From NCBI GenBank assembly GCA_947177005.1, contig CAMWSZ010000020.1, positions 1-16,528 of the forward strand: a stretch of DNA of 16,528 nucleotides, given 5' to 3'. Positions within the stretch are counted from its first letter, which is position 1. Every line of letters begins with the position of its first letter. A program made the translations under genes and the position numbers. The stretch comes from an uncultured Clostridia bacterium. Its GTDB lineage: Bacteria; Bacillota; Clostridia; Oscillospirales; Oscillospiraceae. Positions 3,311 through 16,420 of the stretch are shown in pieces. The notes below the pieces were generated by a model, which did not search any database, was not told the origin of the DNA, and saw nothing but the letters and a program-made list of their open reading frames with translations.

Positions 3311-3577
3311 ATGTTTATTTCCATACATACTGGAGAAGAATACGGTACTTTACAAGAAGCTTTTAAGCACTTCTGTGGAGATAACATCTGCAACGGATGT
3401 CCATTTGATGGTTTTGATATAGATCATCCAGAAGGTAATATCATTTTTTGTGATGAGATTGTAGATAAATATCCAGAAGAGGCTATGCAGATGATAGGAA
3501 TAGTCAAAAAAGATGAGAATTTTGAGGATAATTTTGAGTTTGATGAAATTGCATTTATGGATATGATGGGTTTCTAG
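3311..3577 (+). CDS. Hypothetical Cys/His-rich protein, 88 aa
   Basis: ATG 3311 follows GAAGAGGGTGA (the track uses GTG 3293). It contains CGDNICNGCPFDGFDIDH and a C-terminal tail FEFDEIAFMDMMGF resembling the tails of the 2417 and 2773 paralogs. Confidence 0.55.
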   Translation: MFISIHTGEEYGTLQEAFKHFCGDNICNGCPFDGFDIDHPEGNIIFCDEIVDKYPEEAMQMIGIVKKDENFEDNFEFDEIAFMDMMGF

Positions 3578-3626
3578 GGCTTCCCGTGGGCTCGCCCCGG
3601 CTTTCTGACTAATCAATAAACCATAA

Positions 3627-3656
3627 AAATCCGCCACACGAAAGTGGGGCGGATTT
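3627..3656 (+). terminator. Hairpin terminator after the early small-gene array
   Basis: AAATCCGCCaCAC GAAA GTGgGGCGGATTT, a 12-bp stem with one mismatch and a GAAA tetraloop. The T tail is short. Confidence 0.55.
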
Positions 3657-3743
3657 ACTATGCCCACGCGGCCCCAACCTCCACGCGGTGTGGGTGGATA
3701 ACCAACCAATGGGGTACATAATTGATTAAAAGGAGAATACGTT

Positions 3744-4145
3744 ATGGCAAAGATCGTAGTCGCAGGAAACGCAGTCGTCATCACTTCCGCCCTGAAGCTG
3801 GAGGACATCAAAACCGTCGAGAAGTACCGCCCCAACGAACTCGTCCTGAAGGGCGGCGAGGACGGCAAAGAACCCATCTTCCGGCTGGGCACTACTTCCG
3901 GCACCGGCAGCATCAACACCGTGGGCGCATCCTTCGGTCGTGAGGCGAGCGACGGCAGCGGTCTGGCGGCAATCACGATGGTCATGCCCGATATCCCGGT
4001 CAGCGATGTCACGGAGTGGGTCGCCGACAAGCTGGGCAGCGCGGTCATCAACCTGAACGCCGTCGAGAGCAAACTGCCGGATGTCCTGGTGTCCATCGAG
4101 GCCGAGAAAGCCGCCGTCATGAGCCACATCAGCGTCGCGGGCTGA
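3744..4145 (+). CDS. Hypothetical protein, 133 aa, GC-rich codon usage, no family recognised
   Basis: Strong SD AAAGGAGAA lies 7 nt upstream. GC3-rich codons contrast with the neighbours. The gene has its own terminator. Confidence 0.7.
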   Translation: MAKIVVAGNAVVITSALKLEDIKTVEKYRPNELVLKGGEDGKEPIFRLGTTSGTGSINTVGASFGREASDGSGLAAITMVMPDIPVSDVTEWVADKLGSAVINLNAVESKLPDVLVSIEAEKAAVMSHISVAG

Positions 4146-4156
4146 TTCGCCCCCCT

Positions 4157-4184
4157 AGAGCCGCCCCATTCCGGGGGCGGCTCT
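4157..4184 (+). terminator. GC-rich hairpin terminator
   Basis: 11-bp stem AGAGCCGCCCC / GGGGCGGCTCT with loop ATTCCG, followed by TCT. Confidence 0.6.
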
Positions 4185-4231
4185 TCTGCCACCACACCAA
4201 CAAATTTATTACATAAAAGGAGACTACAACT

Positions 4232-4459
4232 ATGATTAAGGTCACAATCGGCAACAACGTCAAACGCGAGAGCATCATCATCGACGAAAACACCACCCTG
4301 CGCAGCGTCCTGGATACCAACGGCGTGGACTACACTCGCGGCGTCATGCACCTGGACGGCTCCTCTCTCCAGCCCGGCGACCTGGACAAGACCTTCGCCC
4401 AGTTCGGCATCTCCGAAAAGTGCTTCCTCCTCAACGTCGTCAAGGCCGACAACGCCTGA
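4232..4459 (+). CDS. Hypothetical protein, 75 aa, GC-rich codon usage
   Basis: SD AAAGGAGAC lies upstream. The N-terminus MIKVTIGNNV resembles MAKIVVAGNAV of the preceding protein. The gene has its own terminator. Confidence 0.7.
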   Translation: MIKVTIGNNVKRESIIIDENTTLRSVLDTNGVDYTRGVMHLDGSSLQPGDLDKTFAQFGISEKCFLLNVVKADNA

Positions 4460-4473
4460 TTCCCTCCCTACCA

Positions 4474-4503
4474 CAGAGCTGCCCCTAATCTGGGGCGGCT
4501 CTG
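4474..4503 (+). terminator. GC-rich hairpin terminator, near-copy of the 4157..4184 hairpin
   Basis: 12-bp stem CAGAGCTGCCCC / GGGGCGGCTCTG (one G-U pair) with loop TAATCT. Confidence 0.6.
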
Positions 4504-4507
4504 GCAC

Positions 4508-4579
4508 GCCGTTGTAGCTCAGATGGTAGAGAGATGGAGTCGGCTCATCAGGTCACCGGTTCGAGTCCGGTCAACGGCA
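4508..4579 (+). tRNA. tRNA-like gene with a non-canonical anticodon arm. Nominal anticodon is UCG (Arg), but identity is uncertain. No encoded CCA.
   Basis: Acceptor stem GCCGTTG/CAACGGC (7 bp) plus discriminator A. D arm is GCTC-AGATGGTA-GAG(A). T arm is ACCGG-TTCGAGT-CCGGT with the canonical GGTTCGAGTCC. Variable loop is AGGTC. The only 5-bp anticodon stem is GATGG/TCATC, which leaves loop AGTCGGC with G at position 33 and no nucleotide 26. Confidence 0.6.
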
Positions 4580-4801
4580 ATCTTAATAGCGGCCATTGAG
4601 AGACGCATGGAACTATATCTGTGCAGCAGTACCAATGGCTGTTTGTGACGCTGGGTCGCTCCCATCCGTGAAAGCCGGACGGATCAAAACCGATAGAGCC
4701 ATAATAAAGTCGAGTACCAAACGGGGCTAAGTGGCACTTTGTGATGCCCCACTCGCACCCTATGCAGACAGATCGTACAAGTGCAACATGACTGAAAGGA
4801 A

Positions 4802-5347
4802 GTGTGCAATTTGACCAGAAACTATTTTTTAGATTACATTGATGAATTCGATGGGTTAAAGGATTTATGCAGAGAACACGATTGTGATATCTGTGATGGA
4901 ATCATTGACAGCCGTCAGTTTGATGAATATGTCGATGACGACATTAGCGAGGCTTTACCATATCACAATTGGCAAGAAATCCGTGATATGTTAAACGGAA
5001 TCCCCTACGGATACGATTATTACCGTGTAGATGGTTCGTTTGATTACTCCGGCCTGGACTCATACGATTTTGAAAGTTATAAGCAGGAAGTCCTTGAGTG
5101 GATGGATGAAAATGGTTTATGGGATTATGAAGCTGATGAAGAAGAGGATGAAAATGACTCTGAAGAGGTAGAAGTTCTTGAGCCTGAGGAGCCCGAGGTT
5201 GAGGAGGAGGATTTTACCGTGTCTGATCTTATGAGTATGTGTGGAGCTGAGCTCCTCTCTATCAATCGTGCGTCCGAACAGCGTCGGCGGGAAGAGGAAA
5301 ACGTTGACATGAGCCTATTGTTCACTGTTGCCGCTGCTGCCTGCTAA
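4802..5347 (+). CDS. Highly acidic hypothetical protein, about 180 aa
   Basis: GTG 4802 or in-frame TTG 4811 (9 nt after GAAAGGAAG). It contains a long D/E tract, DYEADEEEDENDSEEVEVLEPEEPEVEEEDF. A terminator follows. Confidence 0.65.
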   Translation: MCNLTRNYFLDYIDEFDGLKDLCREHDCDICDGIIDSRQFDEYVDDDISEALPYHNWQEIRDMLNGIPYGYDYYRVDGSFDYSGLDSYDFESYKQEVLEWMDENGLWDYEADEEEDENDSEEVEVLEPEEPEVEEEDFTVSDLMSMCGAELLSINRASEQRRREEENVDMSLLFTVAAAAC

Positions 5348-5360
5348 GGATATTGGTCAT

Positions 5361-5379
5361 AAGCGGTGTCGCCGCTTTT
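5361..5379 (+). terminator. Short rho-independent terminator
   Basis: AAGCGG TGTCG CCGCTT followed by TT(TT)G. Confidence 0.5.
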
Positions 5380-5640
5380 GATAGTTGACTGCTTTGAATA
5401 TTTGCTGTGCTTACATAAAAACTTTTCAGTGATTAGTTGCATAGCATCTTCTCGCTAATAGCAGAAGAAACAATATGATATCTTCGCTTTTTACAGTATC
5501 CATTTCAGCAAACAACTAAAAATTGATCCAATTTTCAGTTGTTCACTAAAATGTTTACGTAAAAAGCGTCGCTGTAGTGCATACGTCTCAGCCTCGTTAC
5601 ACACACACTTCGGCTTCGGCGTACAGAAAGCAGTCAACTT

Positions 5641-5671
5641 AGGGACGGTACAAAATTTATGTACCGTCCCT
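5641..5671. repeat. Perfect 11-bp inverted repeat or hairpin 40 nt upstream of the NAD island
   Basis: AGGGACGGTAC AAAATTTAT GTACCGTCCCT. There is no T-run on either strand. Confidence 0.8.
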
Positions 5672-5711
5672 ATCTTACATACAACGCCCAAAATAAAAAG
5701 GAGGAAAGTCT

Positions 5712-6266
5712 GTGAAATATTTGATCGTTGTTGATATGCAAAAAGACTTTGTAGATGGTGCTCTTGGTACAAAAGAGGCGCAGGCGGTTGTCCAGAATGT
5801 TGCCAATAAAATTCTGAACTTTGACGGTAGATTCTGCGTCACGCTTGACACCCACCAGAAAGACTATCTGTCTACGCAGGAAGGCCGTATTCTTCCGGTT
5901 ATGCACTGCGTAGAGGACACAGATGGGTGGAAATTGGTTGAACCTATTTTTTCGGCATTTGATAAGCGGATATTAGAGGACGTTGTTGATGTGGAGTTCT
6001 TTATGAAACCCACGTTTGGTTCAACAAAACTGGGCGAGTTCTTGGTTTCCGCCAACAGCGTGGAGCCTATTGAAGAGGTTGTTCTGGTTGGGCTTTGCAC
6101 GGATATCTGCGTTATCTCCAATGTTCTACTTGTCAAAGCGTTTCTGCCGGAAGTCAAGGTGACAGTTGATGCCGCCTGCTGCGCAGGTGTAACACCCGAG
6201 AGTCACGCTAACGCTCTGCGGGCCATGCAGATGTGTCAGGTGCATATTCAGAATTGGGAGGGATAA
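5712..6266 (+). CDS. pncA: Isochorismatase-family cysteine hydrolase, nicotinamidase-like
   Basis: GTG start follows AAGGAGGAAAG. Hallmarks present: LIVVDMQKDF (catalytic Asp), KPTFGS (Lys), GLCTDICV (Cys), and LDTH...LPVMHC (metal-site-like). Confidence 0.8.
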   Translation: MKYLIVVDMQKDFVDGALGTKEAQAVVQNVANKILNFDGRFCVTLDTHQKDYLSTQEGRILPVMHCVEDTDGWKLVEPIFSAFDKRILEDVVDVEFFMKPTFGSTKLGEFLVSANSVEPIEEVVLVGLCTDICVISNVLLVKAFLPEVKVTVDAACCAGVTPESHANALRAMQMCQVHIQNWEG

Positions 6267-6268
6267 AA

Positions 6269-7096
6269 ATGATTTTGTTCAACGGAAAAGCAGTGAATCC
6301 TACAAAGTTTCCCGATGGAACATCGTCGTTTCGGTTCGACGTATCTGGCCTGGAGTGCCCCAGTATTCCAACAATTGACACGATTGAGTGGAAGTACGAT
6401 GGCGATCATGAATGTATCATTGTGTGGTATCTGGTCAAACAGATTCGCAGTATCTTGGGTCCGGCCATCCCCATCCAGCTCATGCTGCCCTATGTCCCCA
6501 ATGCCAGAATGGATCGGGTGAAGTCTGGCGATGAAGTGTTTACACTGAAGTGGTTTGCCGACTTCATCAATTCCATGAATTTCTGTCATGTTGCGGTACT
6601 TGATCCGCACTCCAACGTGGCCGCCACTCTCATCAACAACATCTACGTTATGTGGCCTGATGACTACATCAGGTCTGTAAAAGCCTTGCTTGAGGAAGAG
6701 TATGGGTGTCACGATCCGCTCATGTGCTATCCAGATGAAGGCGCTGCCAAACGCTATTCTGAACTGATGAAGGCCGAGTATATATTCGGCATCAAGCATC
6801 GGGACTGGCGCTCTGGAAAAATCGAGAGTCTGGAGCTGACTACTCCTGAAAAGGTATCAGGCCGCGATGTACTTATTGTAGACGATATCTGCTCTCGCGG
6901 CGGTACATTTACTCACACGGCAAGAGCTTTGAAGGAAGCTGGAGCTAATGATATCTACCTGTATGTTTCTCACTGTGAGAACAGCATTTTCAAAGGGTCA
7001 GTGCTGACAGATGGTTTGATTCGCCATGTCTTCACCACTAGCAGTATCTATCGTGGGGAGCACGAAAATATCACCGTAATCGGAGGGAAGGAGTAA
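6269..7096 (+). CDS. prs: Ribose-phosphate pyrophosphokinase (Prs) family protein, 275 aa. Candidate ADPR-pyrophosphate synthetase (Adps-like).
   Basis: ATG 6269 follows GGGAGGG, 2 nt after the upstream stop (the track starts at 6233). Prs-like blocks: LPYVPNARMDR, VLDPHS, CYPDEGAAKRY, KHRDWRSGK and VLIVDDICSRGGTFTHTA. Confidence 0.8.
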   Translation: MILFNGKAVNPTKFPDGTSSFRFDVSGLECPSIPTIDTIEWKYDGDHECIIVWYLVKQIRSILGPAIPIQLMLPYVPNARMDRVKSGDEVFTLKWFADFINSMNFCHVAVLDPHSNVAATLINNIYVMWPDDYIRSVKALLEEEYGCHDPLMCYPDEGAAKRYSELMKAEYIFGIKHRDWRSGKIESLELTTPEKVSGRDVLIVDDICSRGGTFTHTARALKEAGANDIYLYVSHCENSIFKGSVLTDGLIRHVFTTSSIYRGEHENITVIGGKE

Positions 7097-7237
7097 TACC
7101 AATCCTGGTAAACCAGGTTCATGTAAGATTGATAAGTGCATGGTAAAACTGTCTGTTACTGCGTGAAATTATTCAATACGAACTTCGGGTTTGTAGAAAG
7201 TAGCTTGGGAGGATTAGGCAGTTGACCTAAACCAGAT

Positions 7238-8013
7238 ATGGTTGTGGTCGGTATGAAATACATAGCAAGCGTGAGCTTTGGCAAAGACTCTTTAGCGATG
7301 CTATTACGGATTATGGAAGAGAAGCTCCCATTGGATATTGTGGTCTTCTACAATACCGGAATGGAGTTTGAAGCGATATACCATATCAGAGACGAGATTA
7401 CTCCTTTGCTGTCCAAACATGGAGTAGAATTTGTGGAATTGCAGCCAGCAGAACCTTTTCTCTACTCTATGCTTGAGCGAAAAGTTGTGAGCAAGCAAAA
7501 GGAGAGCACTTCGGGTATGGGTGGTGCGGCGGGCTTTGCCGATGGGGAACAGCGAAGAAGACGACAGCGATTAAGAAGTTCAAGCAGTCTATCGATGGAG
7601 AGACGGTCGATTATGTCGGCATAGCGGCGGATGAAACAAAGAGATTTGAAAAAGAGAAGTCTCCTCAACGGCGGTTGCCATTAGTCGAGTGGGGTATGAC
7701 AGAAGCAGATTGTCTGCGATATTGTTATGAACATGGCTTTCACTGGATTGAAGAATCTTCCGTTTCCAGTAGCGGATATGTTGACCTGTACGAGATTCTT
7801 GACCGTGTTTCGTGCTGGTGCTGTACAAACAAAAATCTAAAAGAACTCAAGAATATCTACCAATATCTCCCAAAGTATTGGGATAGACTCAAAATACTGC
7901 AACGGAAAATCGAGAGACCGTACAAGGGGTACTATAAAGGAAAGCATCTCGGAGTATTCGAGTTGGAGGAGCGGTTCTCAAAGGAATTGAGGCTGATGAA
8001 TAACAAAGCATAA
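7238..8013 (+). pseudogene. PAPS reductase-like PP-loop protein interrupted by a frameshift near 7497-7501
   Basis: The N-part has the SFGKDS PP-loop. The family motif GYGWCGGLCRWGT..K and the rest (VDYVGIAADE, VEWGMTE, CWCC) lie in the -1 frame, which opens after TGA 7474-7476. Restoring one A in the A4 run (7497-7500) gives ...SKQKGEHFGYGW... Confidence 0.75.
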
Positions 8014-8180
8014 TGAGATGGATTATTAACTACATTCGGTCACTATTTTGTAAACACGAGTGGGAGCTGGTTGGAAAAACATCCTGTTATATCGACTGGT
8101 TCCCAAAAGATATGCCAGTTGGATATATTGTCGTGTATCGCTGCTGGAAATGCGGATATGTCCAAAAAATCAAATATTGA
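8013..8180 (+). CDS. Small Cys-containing prophage protein, 55 aa (DUF1660-like by recollection)
   Basis: ATG overlaps the upstream TAA (TAATG). It contains LFCKHEWE ... YRCWKCGY. It is below the ORF-track cutoff, and the competing minus ORF 8043..8255 has no support. Confidence 0.5.
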   Translation: MRWIINYIRSLFCKHEWELVGKTSCYIDWFPKDMPVGYIVVYRCWKCGYVQKIKY

Positions 8181-8204
8181 GTAAATGGAACAGGAGGAAA
8201 CAAT

Positions 8205-9707
8205 ATGATTCAGTATAATCCGCTGCTCTGCCTGGATTTTTACAAAACCGCCCATGCTGAGCAGTACCCGCAGACGTTGACAAAGATGGTCTCCTACTAT
8301 ACACCGCGTATGACCCGGCTGTCCGACACCGAAAAGGTTACGATGTTCGGTCTCCAGGCGTTTATCAATGAGTATCTTATCGAAGCATTCAACAAATTTT
8401 TCTTCAAGCGTTCCTTTGGGAAGGTGCTTTCGGAGTATAGACGTGTTCTTCTCTCCACGATTGGAACGACCGGAGTGGGAGAAAAACGTTTGAAGGATTT
8501 ATACAAATTAGGATACTTGCCTTTGGAGATTCGGGCTGTTCCGGAAGGCACCCGCACTGACATTAAGGTGCCGCAGATCGAAATCTCCAACACCCACCCG
8601 GATTTCGTATGGCTGGTCAATTCTATTGAGACTATGCTCTCCTGCACTATGTGGCATACTCAGATTTCCGCTGAGGTTGGATACCGCTATCGTAAAATTG
8701 TCAATGAATTTGCCGACCGCACCTGCGAAGACAGCGTTGCTCGGGCATAACTTCTCGGAGATTTCTCCATGCGTGGACAGGAGAGTGTCGAAAGCGCAAC
8801 GAAGAGTTCTGCGGCTTTCTGCCTGAGCTTCCTGAATACGGCTACTGTTCCCGCTATTTTGTGGCTGGAGAGCAACTACGGCTGCAATTGTGCTAAAGAA
8901 CCTGTGGCCTTTGGTGCGCTATCCACGGAACATAGCGTAATGTGTTCTAACTTTGCGATTGATGGCGATGAAATCTCGCATGTCCGCCGCCTGCTGACAG
9001 AGATTTATCCACATCAGAATTTTTCTATGGTCAGCGACAGCTACGACTATTGGGGATTGGTGGATAATATCCTGCCTCAACTTAAGGATGAAATCCTTGC
9101 TCACGATGGATGCCTGTCCATCCGTGGAGACAGCGGAGACCCCGTTGAAGTTGTCACGCAGACAGTGTTCAAACTGTGGGATATCTTTGGAGGCACCGAG
9201 AACAGCAAAGGCTACAAAGTGCTAGACCCGCACGTCAAAGCTTTGTACGGCGACAGCATCACGCCGCAGCGGTGTCGGCAGGTCTATGAAATTCTGGAGA
9301 GTAACGGCTTTGCTATCAATAATGTGGCTTTGGGCGTTGGGTCTTTCTCTATGCAATGTCTGGAGACCATCTGTGATGAAACCGTTCAAAAAGGCGTTCC
9401 GTCCTACGCTCCATATACTCGCGATACCTTTGGCATTGCTGTGAAGGCGACATATGCCGAGGATGCTGATGGAAAGCCAATTATGATCTTCAAAAATCCC
9501 AAGACTGATACCGGACATTTTAAGAAGTCGCAGCGCGGCTGCTGCCGTGTATTCAAAGACGGTGATGTATACACCTACGAGGACGGATTAACTTGGAATG
9601 AGGCTCAGGAAGGCAATGAACTTCGTCTCGTATTCAAAAATGGTGAGTTTATTCAAACATATACATTGGAGGAGGTTCGGCGAAATCTCCACGGGGATCA
9701 GTTCTAA
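8205..9707 (+). pseudogene. nadV: Nicotinamide phosphoribosyltransferase (Nampt/NadV) family gene with an in-frame TAA at 8748-8750. Candidate Namat-like enzyme.
   Basis: ATG follows AGGAGGAAACA. Track ORFs 8205..8750 and 8769..9707 are in the same frame. Family motifs run across the stop: NPLLCLDFYKTAH, (TAA)LLGDFSMRG, STEHS, MVSDSYD, IRGDSGDP, ENSKGYKVL, YGDS, GVGS, LVFKNGEF. Confidence 0.8.
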
Positions 9708-9723
9708 AGAAAGAGGTGTGGAT

Positions 9724-10485
9724 ATGTTAGTTAATGCTAAGCAGACTAAAAATGAGATTGTTCAGTGGATTCGCGACTATTTTGCGGAGAACGGCCCCGA
9801 GTGCAGCGCCGTTGTTGGTATCTCCAGCGGAAAAGACAGCACAATCGTAGCTGCCCTGTGTGTTGAAGCGCTGGGTAGAGACAGGGTTTTCGGCGTGATG
9901 ATGCCAAACGGCGTTCAGTCCGACATCAATGATTCGGTTAATGTCGTCAACGCTCTTGGAATTCCCAATATGAAGGTCAACATCAGTGGCGCATACAGCA
10001 AACTGATGGCTGCTGTCAGTGCTGAACTCGAATGTGATGCCAGCGAACAGACTAAGGTCAACCTCCCGCCTAGGCTTCGTATGGCTACGCTTTATGCAGT
10101 TGCTCAATCCCTTCCCAACGGCGGGCGTGTGGCGAACACTTGTAATATGTCCGAGGATTATGTCGGATATTCTACCAAATTTGGCGACAGTGCGGGGGAC
10201 TTTAGCCCGCTTGCGAACCTTATGGTTCATGAGGTGCGGCAGATCGGATATGAACTGCCGATTCCCATGGAATTGGTAGATAAGACCCCAACGGATGGTC
10301 TGTGCGGCAAGACCGACGAGGATCATCTTGGCTTCACATATGCCCAGCTCGACGACTACATCATGAATGGAACGAGCGGGATCTTGTCTATCGATTCTGC
10401 TATCTATACGATGCACCAGCATAATTTGCATAAGCTGAATCTAATGCCGTCTTTTAGGCCGCAGAAACTGTGTGAAGCCGTCTAA
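9724..10485 (+). CDS. nadE: NH3-dependent NAD+ synthetase, 253 aa
   Basis: ATG 9724 follows AGAGGTG (the track ORF starts upstream at 9598 inside the previous gene). Motifs present: GISSGKDS PP-loop, PPRLRMATLYAVA, NMSEDYVGYSTKFGDSAGDFSPL, KTPTDGL, DEDHLGFTYAQLDDY. There is no glutaminase domain. Confidence 0.85.
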   Translation: MLVNAKQTKNEIVQWIRDYFAENGPECSAVVGISSGKDSTIVAALCVEALGRDRVFGVMMPNGVQSDINDSVNVVNALGIPNMKVNISGAYSKLMAAVSAELECDASEQTKVNLPPRLRMATLYAVAQSLPNGGRVANTCNMSEDYVGYSTKFGDSAGDFSPLANLMVHEVRQIGYELPIPMELVDKTPTDGLCGKTDEDHLGFTYAQLDDYIMNGTSGILSIDSAIYTMHQHNLHKLNLMPSFRPQKLCEAV

Positions 10486-10513
10486 TGTATTAAGAATCGG
10501 AGGAGGTCTTTAG

Positions 10514-10573
10514 ATGGCCAATAAGCACAGCAGGCCAAAATTTTCTCCCATCATCAGCGATTTCGTAAAATGA
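10514..10573 (+). CDS. Possible 19-codon leader ORF translationally coupled to the next gene
   Basis: ATG lies 7 nt after the strong SD GGAGGAGG. The stop overlaps the next start as ATGA. Confidence 0.25.
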   Translation: MANKHSRPKFSPIISDFVK

Positions 10574-10908
10574 TGGAGGAAGCGGCCAAAGATTATGCTT
10601 GGAACTTTGAAGAAGTGGGTCGTATGGATAAGCTTACGCAGGACTACCTTCATAAGCTTGAACTTGACAACCTAAACTACAAAGAGCGGGCCAAAATAGC
10701 AACACAGATCACAAAATGCAGGCAGGCCCGGCGAGCGTGCAAAGATACCGTTGAGGTGCTGAAGCCGCTCGTGGAATTCCTTGAAAGCGACAGGGGCAGG
10801 AATCTATATAACCTGGTACGCGAAGCGCTCGGTAAGACCAGAAAGGTGGAAGAGCGTATGGAAACTCGCGTATACAGACCAAGAGTTCTGAAGGAGGAGT
10901 CTGTATGA
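10570..10908 (+). CDS. Hypothetical protein, 112 aa, charged and helical-looking
   Basis: Long ORF in the co-directional array. It has no SD of its own and is coupled to the 10514 mini-ORF. Confidence 0.6.
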   Translation: MMEEAAKDYAWNFEEVGRMDKLTQDYLHKLELDNLNYKERAKIATQITKCRQARRACKDTVEVLKPLVEFLESDRGRNLYNLVREALGKTRKVEERMETRVYRPRVLKEESV

Positions 10909-11090
10909 ATATTGTTTTCTGGCTTCTCATCGTCATCGTGCTGGTTCTGATCTGGTTCTGCCTTAGCTTTGCCTTTAAGGGCATCGGCGGAATCTGGTTG
11001 AAACTGTACAACGGTGCAAAGAAAGAAATCGAGGGTGATAAGCCCGAAAAATCGAAAGAATGTGAGGATGATTCATCAAATGAAAGGTAA
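10905..11090 (+). CDS. Small membrane protein, 61 aa (one or two TM segments plus a charged tail)
   Basis: ATG overlaps the upstream stop (ATGA) after GAAGGAGGAG. Sequence is IVFWLLIVIVLVLIWFCLSFAF followed by a K/E/D-rich tail. Confidence 0.55.
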   Translation: MNIVFWLLIVIVLVLIWFCLSFAFKGIGGIWLKLYNGAKKEIEGDKPEKSKECEDDSSNER

Positions 11091-11976
11091 AATTGGTGCA
11101 ATTCTGCTGGCGCTGGTCATGGTCTTCGGCCTGATCGGTGCCATTATCTGTCTGGAGCGTGTTCCCGCTGGCTATGTCGGCGTGGTGTACAACATGAACG
11201 GCGGCGTGGATGGAGAGGTGCTGACTCAGGGATGGCATTTGGTCCCTCCGACCAAGAAGATCACTACATACTCAATCGGCATTGAGCAGTCTTATCTGAC
11301 CGCAGAGGATAAGGGAGATTCCAGAGAAGACGAGAGCTTCAGTATTCCTACATCCGACGGCAAGACCGTGCGTGTAAATCTTGAGTTCTCTTATCGTTTT
11401 GACGAAGGCAGCGTGGCGAGTACCTTCGTCACTTTTAAGGGCAAATCAGGCGAGACGATTAAAGACACATTCATCAAGCCGAAGGTTATCGCCTGGACGC
11501 AGGAGGTTTCCGCAAATTATCCGGTCACGGATATTTTTGGTGACAAGCGTACTGCTATCAATGCAGAACTTGATACCTACCTGCGGGAAAAATTTGATGT
11601 CTATGGTATTATCATCGATACGGTGAATTTTACCGACATTTCTGTTGACGCGGAGACAGCGGCTGCTATCCAGAAAAAGGTCACAGCGCAGCAGGAACTG
11701 GAACTGGCAAATATCGAAGCACAAACTGCAAAAATCCAAGCAGAGAAGGATAAGCAGGTTGCCGAGATTGCAGCTCAGCAGGCCATTGTTGAGGCCGAGG
11801 CTGCTGCAGAGGTCGTTCGCATTGAGGCTGAAGCTGAGGCTTCTGCCAATCAGAAGATCGCTGCATCGTTGACGCCAGAGCTGATTGAAAAGATCAAGTA
11901 CGAGCAGTGGAACGGCGTGGTGCCAAAGGTTACTTCATCCAGCGGCACCATTATCGACTTTGACAGTCTCGACTAA
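11080..11976 (+). CDS. SPFH/band-7 (prohibitin/HflC-like) membrane protein, 298 aa
   Basis: ATG 11080 follows GAGGATGA (alternative ATG 11068; the track starts at 11014). N-terminal TM is IGAILLALVMVFGLIGAIICL, then ERVPAGYVGVVYN...GWHLVPP typical of SPFH. The C-terminus is an A/E/Q-rich coiled coil. Confidence 0.8.
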   Translation: MKGKIGAILLALVMVFGLIGAIICLERVPAGYVGVVYNMNGGVDGEVLTQGWHLVPPTKKITTYSIGIEQSYLTAEDKGDSREDESFSIPTSDGKTVRVNLEFSYRFDEGSVASTFVTFKGKSGETIKDTFIKPKVIAWTQEVSANYPVTDIFGDKRTAINAELDTYLREKFDVYGIIIDTVNFTDISVDAETAAAIQKKVTAQQELELANIEAQTAKIQAEKDKQVAEIAAQQAIVEAEAAAEVVRIEAEAEASANQKIAASLTPELIEKIKYEQWNGVVPKVTSSSGTIIDFDSLD

Positions 11977-15404: not shown

Positions 15405-15431
15405 TATAGCAATCATCAAAACTACTGACAG
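15405..15431. repeat. IS630-family left inverted repeat
   Basis: TATAGCAATCATCAAAACTACTGACAG. Confidence 0.75.
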
Positions 15432-16358
15432 AAGAAGACAGAATTGAACCAGTGCTGGCAATCACGAAGGGAAACAAGGTCCAGAGCCCGAGAGACAGAC
15501 TGTGGGAGATCGTCTGGTGAACGGACTTTCCATGCACGGAGAAAAGCCTTCATTTTGGACCACATTTTTTCAATAGGATTGAGATCCGGGCTGTAGGGAG
15601 GAAGATATACCGGGGTAATACCATGAGAAGCCAGCAATTCGCCCACAGCTTTCATACGATGGGTACGCATATTATCCATCACGACAATATCCCCCGGATG
15701 CAGAGTGGGAAGCAGTGTGTCCTTCAAATAGGTCAGGAAACGCTCTCCGGTCGTTCCGCCCTGGTAAGTGGTAAAAACTTTCTCTCCGTTGAAGCGAATA
15801 GACGACAATACCGTTGTGGTTTTCGGTGTATTGAGCGGTGCGTGGTCTACTACTCGCTGAGAAGACGGTGCTCTCCCGTAACGCCGCGTCAGATTGGTAT
15901 TAACGCCGCTTTCGTCCAGAAATACCTGATGTTCTGCCATTTCTGCTGTGATGTTTTCCTTCCACAGTTCCCTTTTTTCCTGTACGTCGAAGACGGTCAC
16001 GCTCACTTGCGTACCGTGTCTTCTTTTTCAACGTATAGCCCAGAGACAAGATCGCTCGCTCTACTGTGGAATAACTGGCATCCAGTCCCAGTTTTTCTTG
16101 TATCTCCTCTACCGTGCTATCCGGATTCTCGTCCATGCTTTTTGGGATTTCCTCTTTATCCTCCGCTGTCAGTAATGGTTTCCGGCCTCGTTGGCTGGTT
16201 CGCAACGCCACGCTCCCTGTTTCTCGTTTTTGCTGCGCTAACCGATATACTGTTCGCTCACTTACCGAATATGCCGCTGCGATTGTTTTGGCATCTCCTG
16301 TCTTTTCATACCCTTTTACCAGCAGTTCCCGCGCTTCATTATGCAGCATTTCTATCAT
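15422..16358 (-). CDS. IS630-family transposase in two overlapping frames (HTH part 15900..16358/16400, DDE part 15422..16006)
   Basis: The likely start is ATG 16358, after AGAGGGAGAGGGG. The N-part has HTH-like AAAYSVSERTVYRL and LGYTLKKKTRYASERD. The C-part has VFLDESGVNTNLTRRYGRAP, IVVMDNMRTH and YLPPYSPDLNPIEKMW. Joining the frames requires a +1 (or -2) shift. Confidence 0.75.
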
Positions 16359-16393
16359 CCCCTCTCCCTCTGTTATACCACTCTTGTCAATAC

Positions 16394-16420
16394 CTGCCAC
16401 TATTTTTGATGGTTGCTATA
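16394..16420. repeat. IS630-family right inverted repeat
   Basis: The reverse complement reads TATAGCAACCATCAAAAATAGTGGCAG. Confidence 0.75.

Follow-up and report, generated by a model that had tools for sequence, protein, structure and literature searches.

A candidate nicotinate-based variant of the phage NAD+ restoration pathway NARP1 on a contig from an uncultured Clostridia bacterium

Few outcomes of bacterial anti-phage defence are commoner than the depletion of NAD+, to which NARP1 is the chief response so far known in phages. Here we describe a four-gene cassette on contig CAMWSZ010000020.1 (assembly GCA_947177005.1, an uncultured Clostridia bacterium) that encodes a nicotinamidase-like (PncA-like) hydrolase, an Adps-like homologue of Prs, a Namat-like transferase of the Nampt family and an NH3-dependent NAD+ synthetase, NadE. 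The window analysed is the entire 16,528-bp public contig, and our view of the genome extends over this contig. With a probability of roughly 0.55, we read the cassette as a deamidated variant of NARP1, in which a re-specified Namat would join nicotinate to ADP-ribose pyrophosphate (ADPR-PP) and NadE would complete the synthesis of NAD+.

The proposed pathway would come into play once NAD+ has been cleaved by a host NADase to ADP-ribose and nicotinamide. The nicotinamidase-like enzyme would convert nicotinamide to nicotinate and NH3, the Adps-like enzyme would convert ADP-ribose and ATP to ADPR-PP, and the Namat-like enzyme would then combine ADPR-PP with nicotinate to give deamido-NAD (nicotinate adenine dinucleotide, NaAD), a step that would make both the mononucleotide intermediate and an adenylyltransferase unnecessary. 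Finally, NadE would use NaAD, NH3 and ATP to regenerate NAD+. The substrates and products of every one of these steps are those that we infer from sequence, and we know of no organism in which the direct synthesis of NaAD from ADPR-PP is a known reaction. In this particular contig the transferase step is probably dead, as discussed below.

In the Namat of SPbetaL1, nicotinamide is flanked by Phe189 and Tyr15′ and forms a hydrogen bond with Asp215, with Ala242 and Arg306 completing the pocket, and the D215A substitution lowers NAD+ output about 8-fold (PMC12774641). The equivalent residue of human NAMPT, Asp219, is fundamental for substrate specificity (PMC7096376, PMC4919578), and the work of Khan et al. 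2006, as summarised in the same two papers, lists D219S as a switch of substrate affinity and D219A as a loss of activity. Asp219, His191, a water molecule and Tyr188 form a single hydrogen-bonded cavity wall beside the pyridine site, and Gly217 is needed as room for the network water (PMC4186856). When all of the fetched transferases were aligned to SPbetaL1 Namat, whose numbering is used throughout, the window's transferase was found to have Ala in place of the nicotinamide-binding Asp215, and so to lack a residue expected of a NARP1 transferase. This exchange does not stand alone: throughout the sequences that share it, which we call the Ala215 class, the whole of the surrounding network is changed with it (Table 1).

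Table 1. Pyridine-pocket positions that distinguish classic Namat from the Ala215 class
SPbetaL1 Namat position	Human NAMPT equivalent	Classic Namat	Ala215 class
184	Tyr188	F/W/Y	R or K, 197/199 (the window has TAA)
187	His191	H	G, 199/199
213	Gly217	G	N, 197/199
215	Asp219	D	A, 199/199
242		A	S, 199/199
307		P	G, 198/199

Across 81 classic sequences, the residues at 187, 213, 215, 242 and 307 never vary and position 184 is aromatic in 80 of the 81; three further classic sequences carry Glu at 215. The catalytic and ribose-phosphate residues are kept by the Ala215 class, namely D13, Y15, F189, R192, H245, R306, D308, G360, D361, G390 and S391. At the amide end of the pocket, therefore, one acid has been lost while a base and a hydroxyl have been gained, a change that fits a nicotinate carboxylate as ligand, such that the pocket appears to have been remodelled to bind nicotinate.

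Relatives of the cassette were collected in two scans of IMG/VR (viral contigs, mostly 100–160 kb) and one scan of GTDB species genomes, giving about 200 loci from gut and rumen phages and Clostridia assemblies with the same transferase at 53–87% identity. The GTDB genomes with relatives include isolates (Dysosmobacter segnis, Hominicoprocola fusiformis and an Oscillospiraceae bacterium) as well as many gut and rumen metagenome-assembled genomes carrying labels such as Lachnospiraceae, Christensenella and Ruminococcus. Close matches among isolated or deposited phages were confined to uncultured human-gut records, the nearest proteins of cultured phages being 45–47% identical, and the best 120 matches of the protein homologue search all fell within the clade.

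Profiles built from the cassette proteins were run against every open reading frame (ORF) of every locus, and gene linkage was counted once per unique transferase sequence, for loci whose flanks extended 4 kb or more in each direction (Table 2). The outcome is a nearly one-to-one correspondence between the altered pocket and the presence of genes for the nicotinamidase and NadE. The classic loci come from a set of 80 IMG/VR loci, fetched with a classic Namat alignment, in which a PncA-like or NadE gene adjoined NARP1 in 0 of 80. Adps itself was found within the fetched flanks of 77 of these 80 loci and of 187 of 198 Ala215-class loci. The sequence-only reading of this DNA had suggested that flux through nicotinate and deamido-NAD would make sense of the four genes together; the loss of Asp215 along with its entire hydrogen-bond network, and the linkage of that loss to the two additional genes, both support such a route.

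Table 2. Genes accompanying the transferase, by residue at position 215
Transferase class	Loci	PncA-like and NadE	PncA-like only	NadE only	Neither
Ala215	132	127	3	1	1
Asp/Glu215	51	0	0	0	51

The cassette genes have been found in at least three arrangements (PncA-Adps-transferase-NadE, Adps-transferase-NadE-PncA and transferase-NadE-PncA-Adps). In L003, the closest long relative, an ORF with an HD domain lies between Adps and the transferase at 3586–4209, and its HD..HD motifs make it look like a RelA/SpoT-type hydrolase. The INPHARED phage records agree with the counts of Table 2, a homologue of Namat/Nampt being found in 2,045, one of NadE in 46 and one of this nicotinamidase in 8.

The window's clade is monophyletic in 200 of 200 neighbor-joining (NJ) bootstraps and thus has a single origin, so the counts in Table 2 record retention of the linkage rather than independent events. 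A second lineage, which partly replicates the linkage, consists of Phass-1 (OQ749652; L075 and L286-L288) and 11 IMG/VR contigs (L289-L299) in which TAG is read as Gln, and no other sampled sequence is more than 42% identical to it. Its transferases have A215, S242 and G187 with Arg at 213, have neither R nor K at 184 and possess a classic clamp helix, and all 12 of its 12 loci carry PncA, Adps and NadE. A grouping of all Ala215 sequences as one clade was considered and given up, as it is unsupported once Phass-1 is included (25/200 NJ bootstraps). The Ala215/Ser242/Gly187 pocket of the Phass-1-like enzymes may be a convergent solution.

Both of the core proteins group with NARP1 enzymes rather than with their cellular counterparts. 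The Prs-like protein matches phrog_619 at 234 bits (4.9e-69), a family that the validated Adps proteins of SPbetaL1 and ICP1 match at 248 and 287 bits, respectively. In BLASTP it scores 150 bits against SPbetaL1 Adps, to which it is 37% identical over the full length, 114 bits against ICP1 Adps and 69 bits against E. coli Prs. On TIGR01251, the model of cellular Prs, it reaches 85.5 bits and so falls under the cut-off of 113, as do both validated Adps proteins, and E. coli Prs scores about the same against the window's class (median 57 bits) as against classic Adps (58). The equivalents of ICP1 R87, H121, D161, K185, D212 and D213 are all conserved; these catalytic residues are common to true Prs and hence do not discriminate. 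No Adps-like entry was found among PDB sequences, where the top match is a Prs at 58 bits. The Gln of the Prs 'RQDR' motif was tried as a marker of Adps versus Prs and dropped, since it is present in 39 of 74 classic Adps sequences.

The transferase carries the Nampt-family domains PF18127 and PF04095. With its internal stop codon repaired, it matches the Namat crystal structures 9W5X and 9W5W, both from SPbetaL1 (PMC12774641), at 393 bits (2.5e-116), far above the roughly 155–171 bits (about 1e-45 to 1e-49) that it scores against true Nampt from Xanthomonas and mammals. Its identity to Namat is about 43%, compared with about 30% to NARP2-type Nampt. Neither phrog_448 nor the NCBIfam model PRK09198 was used for placement, as both fail to separate Namat from Nampt. 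A 495-aa protein deposited as 'nicotinamide phosphoribosyltransferase' (PDB 9KE8/9KEO) matches the window protein at 324 bits, a score between those of Namat and true Nampt, and is thus probably another phage Namat. Since an Adps-clade and a Namat-clade protein are encoded together, the pair is of the NARP1 type by the criteria of Osterman et al. This bears out the earlier proposal of a NARP1-like pair, as opposed to an ordinary Prs with an ordinary NadV.

Which ribosyl donor the transferase would use is a separate matter, for which the published work on the clamp of Namat is informative. The adenine of NAD+ is held by Phe392, Arg40′ and Asp400′, aided by Tyr396 and Thr398′, and the R40A/F392G enzyme loses the use of ADPR-PP entirely and keeps that of phosphoribosyl pyrophosphate (PRPP) intact (PMC12774641). 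In the Ala215 class, Arg40 is present in 197 of 199 sequences and Phe392 in 198 of 199, while D361, T398 and D400 are invariant; the window's own transferase retains T398-R399-D400. The NARP2-type Nampt of phage D481, by comparison, has neither F392 nor T398. The NARP2 route goes by way of nicotinamide mononucleotide (NMN), and 94% of phages with a Nampt of that type encode an Nmnat of their own; an NMNAT-like or NadR-like ORF was found in the flanks of only four of about 200 fetched loci (L049 and L122, both from one contig, together with L194 and L201). The retention of Arg40 and Phe392, taken with the scarcity of Nmnat, gives moderate support to ADPR-PP as the predicted donor and to the direct formation of NaAD. 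These few NMNAT-like (GSFNPITLGH) or NadR-like ORFs lie about 8.5 kb downstream in L049/L122, at 361–1503 in L194 and at 10027–11097 in L201; the ORF of L201 is the NadR-like one, and that locus has no NadE within its flanks, which hints at mixed pathway designs. No NMNAT- or NadR-like ORF was found in the complete 136-kb genome of Phass-1, translated with code 15.

The two enzymes that would handle the pyridine side of the pathway are recognizable with different degrees of precision. The hydrolase matches PF00857 (1.1e-19) and phrog_19305 (3e-29), and its top PDB match is the nicotinamidase of Pyrococcus horikoshii, 1ILW (7.5e-9). All 147 unique cassette homologues share its catalytic D8, K99 and C133 and its metal ligands D46-x-H48 and H65, and these residues can be matched to the Asp-x-His, His and Cys motifs of 1ILW, in which we take the triad to be Asp-Lys-Cys and the metal site to be Asp-x-His...His, with residue numbers likewise assumed. 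Other isochorismatase-family hydrolases score alike with the window hydrolase in the PDB search. NadE scores 169.9 bits on TIGR00552 (cut-off 63.65), with further matches to PF02540 (7e-50) and phrog_11189 (5e-61), and consists of a single synthetase domain with the PP-loop motif SSGKDS. Its top PDB matches are Francisella 3FIU (118 bits, 3.5e-33) and the archaeal NadE 2E18 (113 bits, 1.7e-31), both of which were deposited as NH3-dependent NAD+ synthetase. With a gap of just 5 bits between them, either NaAD or nicotinate mononucleotide (NaMN) may be the substrate as far as sequence goes.

Several observations weigh against a deamidated NARP1. The hydrolase reaches 34.1 bits on the NCBIfam PncA model PRK11609, whose cut-off is 174, and 3FIU, the solved NadE most similar to that of the window, acts specifically on NaMN and not on NaAD. 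The covariation of pocket and genes, however long it has persisted, represents one or two evolutionary events. In the window's clade the published clamp motif of Namat, GSxPhixPhixPhiTRD, retains GSF and TRD and is split by an insertion. All members have this insertion, which varies in sequence and in length, with 19 residues in the window and between 8 and about 40 in its relatives; neither classic Namat nor the Phass-1-like lineage has it. Tyr396, the aromatic residue at position 7 of the motif, has no counterpart in this clade, an aromatic residue always being found just before TRD instead. Given the insertion and the loss of Tyr396, recognition of ADPR-PP could be altered, and Namat is able to take PRPP as well in vitro (PMC12774641). 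Finally, the transferase copy in this contig is truncated, and is probably either inactive or mis-sequenced.

For this contig in particular, we lean slightly towards the cassette being a decaying remnant or a poor stretch of sequence that has no function here. ORF finding splits the Namat-like gene into 8205–8750 and 8769–9707, because the premature TAA removes everything from codon 182 onwards; the second ORF begins beyond the ring-stacking Phe189 and so is without it. In all 74 of the first-fetched relatives the gene is uninterrupted, with a length of about 490–510 codons and with K or R at the site of the TAA (codons AAG, AGA, CGT, AGG, AAA and others), and the 312-aa transferase fragment was found on this single contig only, close relatives being about 500 aa. 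Recoding of the stop codon was considered and is excluded, since TAA serves as a true stop in the window more often than any other codon, ending 11 of its 25 ORFs, including four cassette genes, and since the relatives encode K or R. The neighbouring PAPS-reductase-like gene (PAPS, 3′-phosphoadenosine-5′-phosphosulfate) has a lesion of its own, a 1-nt deletion that DNA comparison places in a Gly codon (GGN to GG) near 7501–7503; the gene is intact (about 255 aa) in L003 and L021. An IS630-type transposase at the contig end would also suit a decaying locus. Two single-base lesions imply that the copy is decaying or that the assembly is in error, and single-base events are of a sort that assembly or sequencing error yields; the other three cassette genes are intact, with all of their catalytic residues present.

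The strongest rival to the deamidated NARP1 reading for the class as a whole is a phage-encoded Preiss-Handler salvage, in which PncA would supply nicotinate, the Prs-like enzyme PRPP and the transferase NaMN, with the host NadD making NaAD and the phage NadE finishing the pathway. We regard this as unlikely, though it is the alternative that survives best. A remodelled pocket argues for nicotinate whatever the ribosyl donor may be, the in vitro use of PRPP by Namat-type enzymes and the interrupted clamp helix with its missing Tyr396 would both suit a PRPP-dependent enzyme, the catalytic residues of the Adps-like protein are the same as those of true Prs, and NadD is present in every host. What tells against it is that the Prs-like protein groups with the validated Adps proteins and is as distant from E. 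coli Prs as they are, and that Arg40 and Phe392, needed only for the use of ADPR-PP, are almost invariant. In addition, a host NadD of low abundance would stay as the bottleneck of the pathway, whereas NARP2 phages nearly always bring an Nmnat and here one is nearby in only four of about 200 loci.

It is considerably less probable that the cassette is an ordinary, nicotinamide-using NARP1 to which the nicotinamidase and NadE are unrelated, serving instead to support host salvage or to remove nicotinamide. NARP1 operons do gain accessories, such as a Macro-domain phosphatase and the RyDEP glycosidase, and two unrelated genes lie inside the cassette of the window. Yet Asp215 and four of its pocket neighbours are replaced in 199 of 199 sequences of the class and invariant in the 81 classic ones, the D215A and D219A substitutions harm the use of nicotinamide, and the linkage between pocket and genes in two deep lineages would be left unexplained. 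A route through NMN, in which nicotinate and PRPP would give NaMN, a Francisella-type NadE would convert this to NMN and a host enzyme would adenylate it, has in its favour that, among solved structures, NadE comes closest to the Francisella NMN synthetase 3FIU, but it is highly improbable, since the margin of 3FIU over 2E18 is 118 versus 113 bits, Nampt acting on nicotinamide reaches NMN in one step so that nothing is gained by deamidation and re-amidation, and an adenylyltransferase would still be required, of which the window has none.

Compared with the systems that have been described, the cassette resembles NARP1 (10.1101/2024.02.11.579819; PMC12774641; PMC13586617) in pairing Adps-clade and Namat-clade phage genes without Nmnat and in keeping Namat His245, R306, D308, F189, R192, D13 and Y15 as well as R40 and F392 of the clamp. 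It differs in having Ala for Asp215, in the replacement of F184, H187, G213, A242 and P307, in its interrupted clamp helix, in its two added conserved genes and in the predicted product of its transferase, which would be NaAD and not NAD+. Extended forms of NARP1, with the Macro-domain phosphatase Adpp acting against aRES (10.64898/2026.01.28.702374) or with the RyDEP glycosidase (10.64898/2026.05.28.727677), likewise use accessory enzymes within the operon to widen the intake of the pathway; those accessories act on the ADP-ribose side and leave the core unchanged, whereas in this cassette it is the pyridine side that has gained enzymes, and the transferase itself would be re-specified. The Preiss-Handler cycle (PncA, PncB, NadD, NadE) shares the deamidation of nicotinamide, deamido-NAD as the penultimate compound and NadE as the last enzyme, but the cassette has no PncB-family enzyme or NadD, and with ADPR-PP, made by Adps, as the predicted donor a single step would do the work of both PncB and NadD. 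Substitutions of Asp219 in human NAMPT concern the same structural positions and show that a change of this Asp alters pyridine choice; those are engineered single changes, while the change here is natural, fixed and spread over several residues, with a predicted effect on specificity. NARP2 (Nampt and Nmnat, as in KVP40) and NARP3 (PnuC and NadR, PMC13464706) are alike in being phage-encoded means of restoring NAD+, but the window has no Nmnat, NadR or PnuC and its transferase groups with Namat. Another likeness is Phass-1 (OQ749652, PMC10607447), a gut phage with a published and annotated genome in which nicotinamidase, Prs-like, Nampt-like and NadE genes stand in a row and the transferase has A215, S242 and G187; it differs in belonging to a separate deep lineage, in reading TAG as Gln and in having a classic clamp helix and Arg213. 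The paper on Phass-1 lists the nicotinamidase, has NadE annotated as 'hypothetical' and does not discuss the cassette (PMC10607447). A description of NARP1 combined with NadE or a nicotinamidase was not found in the searchable literature, outside which subscription-only papers lie.

The layout of the locus is given in Table 3. All four genes stand on the + strand at the positions assigned to them in the sequence-only reading, as ORFs and family matches alike confirm, and the absence of an adenylyltransferase from the window that it reported also holds: there were zero Pfam matches to CTP_transf_like among 30 window ORFs, and neither phmmer searches with E. coli NadD and NadR as queries nor a scan for HxGH-type motifs returned anything from the window's six-frame ORFs. 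The tight spacing that it described does not hold, as the PAPS-reductase-like gene and a 55-aa ORF separate the Prs-like from the Nampt-like gene.

Table 3. Features of the cassette and their positions in the window
Feature	Position	Strand	Remarks
Nicotinamidase-like (PncA-like) isochorismatase-family hydrolase	5712-6266	+	184 aa, GTG start
Adps-like Prs homologue, predicted ADP-ribose pyrophosphokinase	6269-7096	+	275 aa
PAPS-reductase-like (PP-loop) passenger gene, frameshifted	7238-8013	+	PF01507, phrog_424 on both halves
Passenger 55-aa CxxC...CxxC zinc-ribbon ORF	8013-8180	+	tblastn relatives
Namat-like transferase, 'Ala215 class', predicted nicotinate ADP-ribose transferase	8205-9707	+	500 codons, one internal stop
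Arg40-equivalent codon of the Namat-like gene (clamp-loop stacking residue, Arg or Lys/Tyr in NARP1)	8316-8318	+	Arg
Premature TAA in the Namat-like gene	8748-8750	+	SPbetaL1 Namat position 184 / human NAMPT Tyr188
GCT, Ala codon equivalent to Namat Asp215 / human NAMPT Asp219	8841-8843	+	alignments
19-residue insertion in the 'selectivity clamp helix' motif	9357-9413	+	GSFSMQ[CLETICDETVQKGVPSYAP]YTRD
NH3-dependent NAD+ synthetase NadE	9724-10485	+	253 aa, without glutaminase domain

The PAPS-reductase-like gene is outside the NAD+ pathway, and since it lies at differing places relative to the cassette in L003 and L021, it behaves as a mobile passenger. Just 5′ of it, the window (~7097–7170) and L021 (~7180–7266) share the sequence NTNPGKPGSCKIDKCMVKL.VTA, which could represent either a short ORF or a non-coding element, conserved and moving together with the gene. 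The zinc-ribbon ORF has no Pfam match and is found by tblastn at 53–67% identity in L001-L004 and L014. No Pfam match to a PnuC-like transporter or NadR-like enzyme, the pair that defines NARP3, was seen among the 30 window ORFs, and a promoter and terminator scan of 4500–11100 gave the same counts as shuffled sequence.

The earlier view that this DNA is phage-borne is supported by the relatives on 100–160 kb IMG/VR viral contigs and by PHROG matches, and the content of the window outside the cassette resembles that of a large phage. It includes a tRNA-Arg, a GP88-family protein, an HNH endonuclease and an SPFH protein (phrog_200), as well as several ORFs with PHROG matches only; a megablast query with the full window found nothing among 50,697 phage records. 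A segment at 3350–4507 has 56% G+C between flanks of about 40% and ends exactly at tRNA-Arg(TCG), 4508–4579. Its sole long ORF, of 385 aa, is on the minus strand, opposite to all of its neighbours, and searches of Pfam, PHROG and Rfam returned nothing for the segment, nor did blastn find it in any fetched locus. At the right end of the contig, the IS630-type transposase (helix-turn-helix and DDE_3) occupies two overlapping ORFs on the minus strand at 15422–16400 and probably explains the assembly break there.

A broader proposition, for and against which we find the case evenly balanced, is that the Ala215-class enzyme would be a nicotinate ADP-ribose transferase and the four-enzyme pathway the standard NARP1 of large gut and rumen Clostridia phages, having arisen twice or else predating a split to about 40% identity. 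If this is true, a large group of gut and rumen phages would answer NAD+ depletion by way of nicotinate, NaAD and a new enzyme activity, and the rule that Adps plus Namat equals NARP1 would currently be hiding a nicotinate variant. The class would also represent a natural specificity switch in the Nampt/Namat fold, made up of five co-varying residues that could be transferred to SPbetaL1 Namat or human NAMPT. It would then be a matter of why phages of Clostridia spend one extra ATP on a detour through nicotinate; possible reasons are that host nicotinamidases deplete nicotinamide, that the charged acid is trapped in the cell, and that the ATP-driven amidation pulls the pathway towards NAD+.

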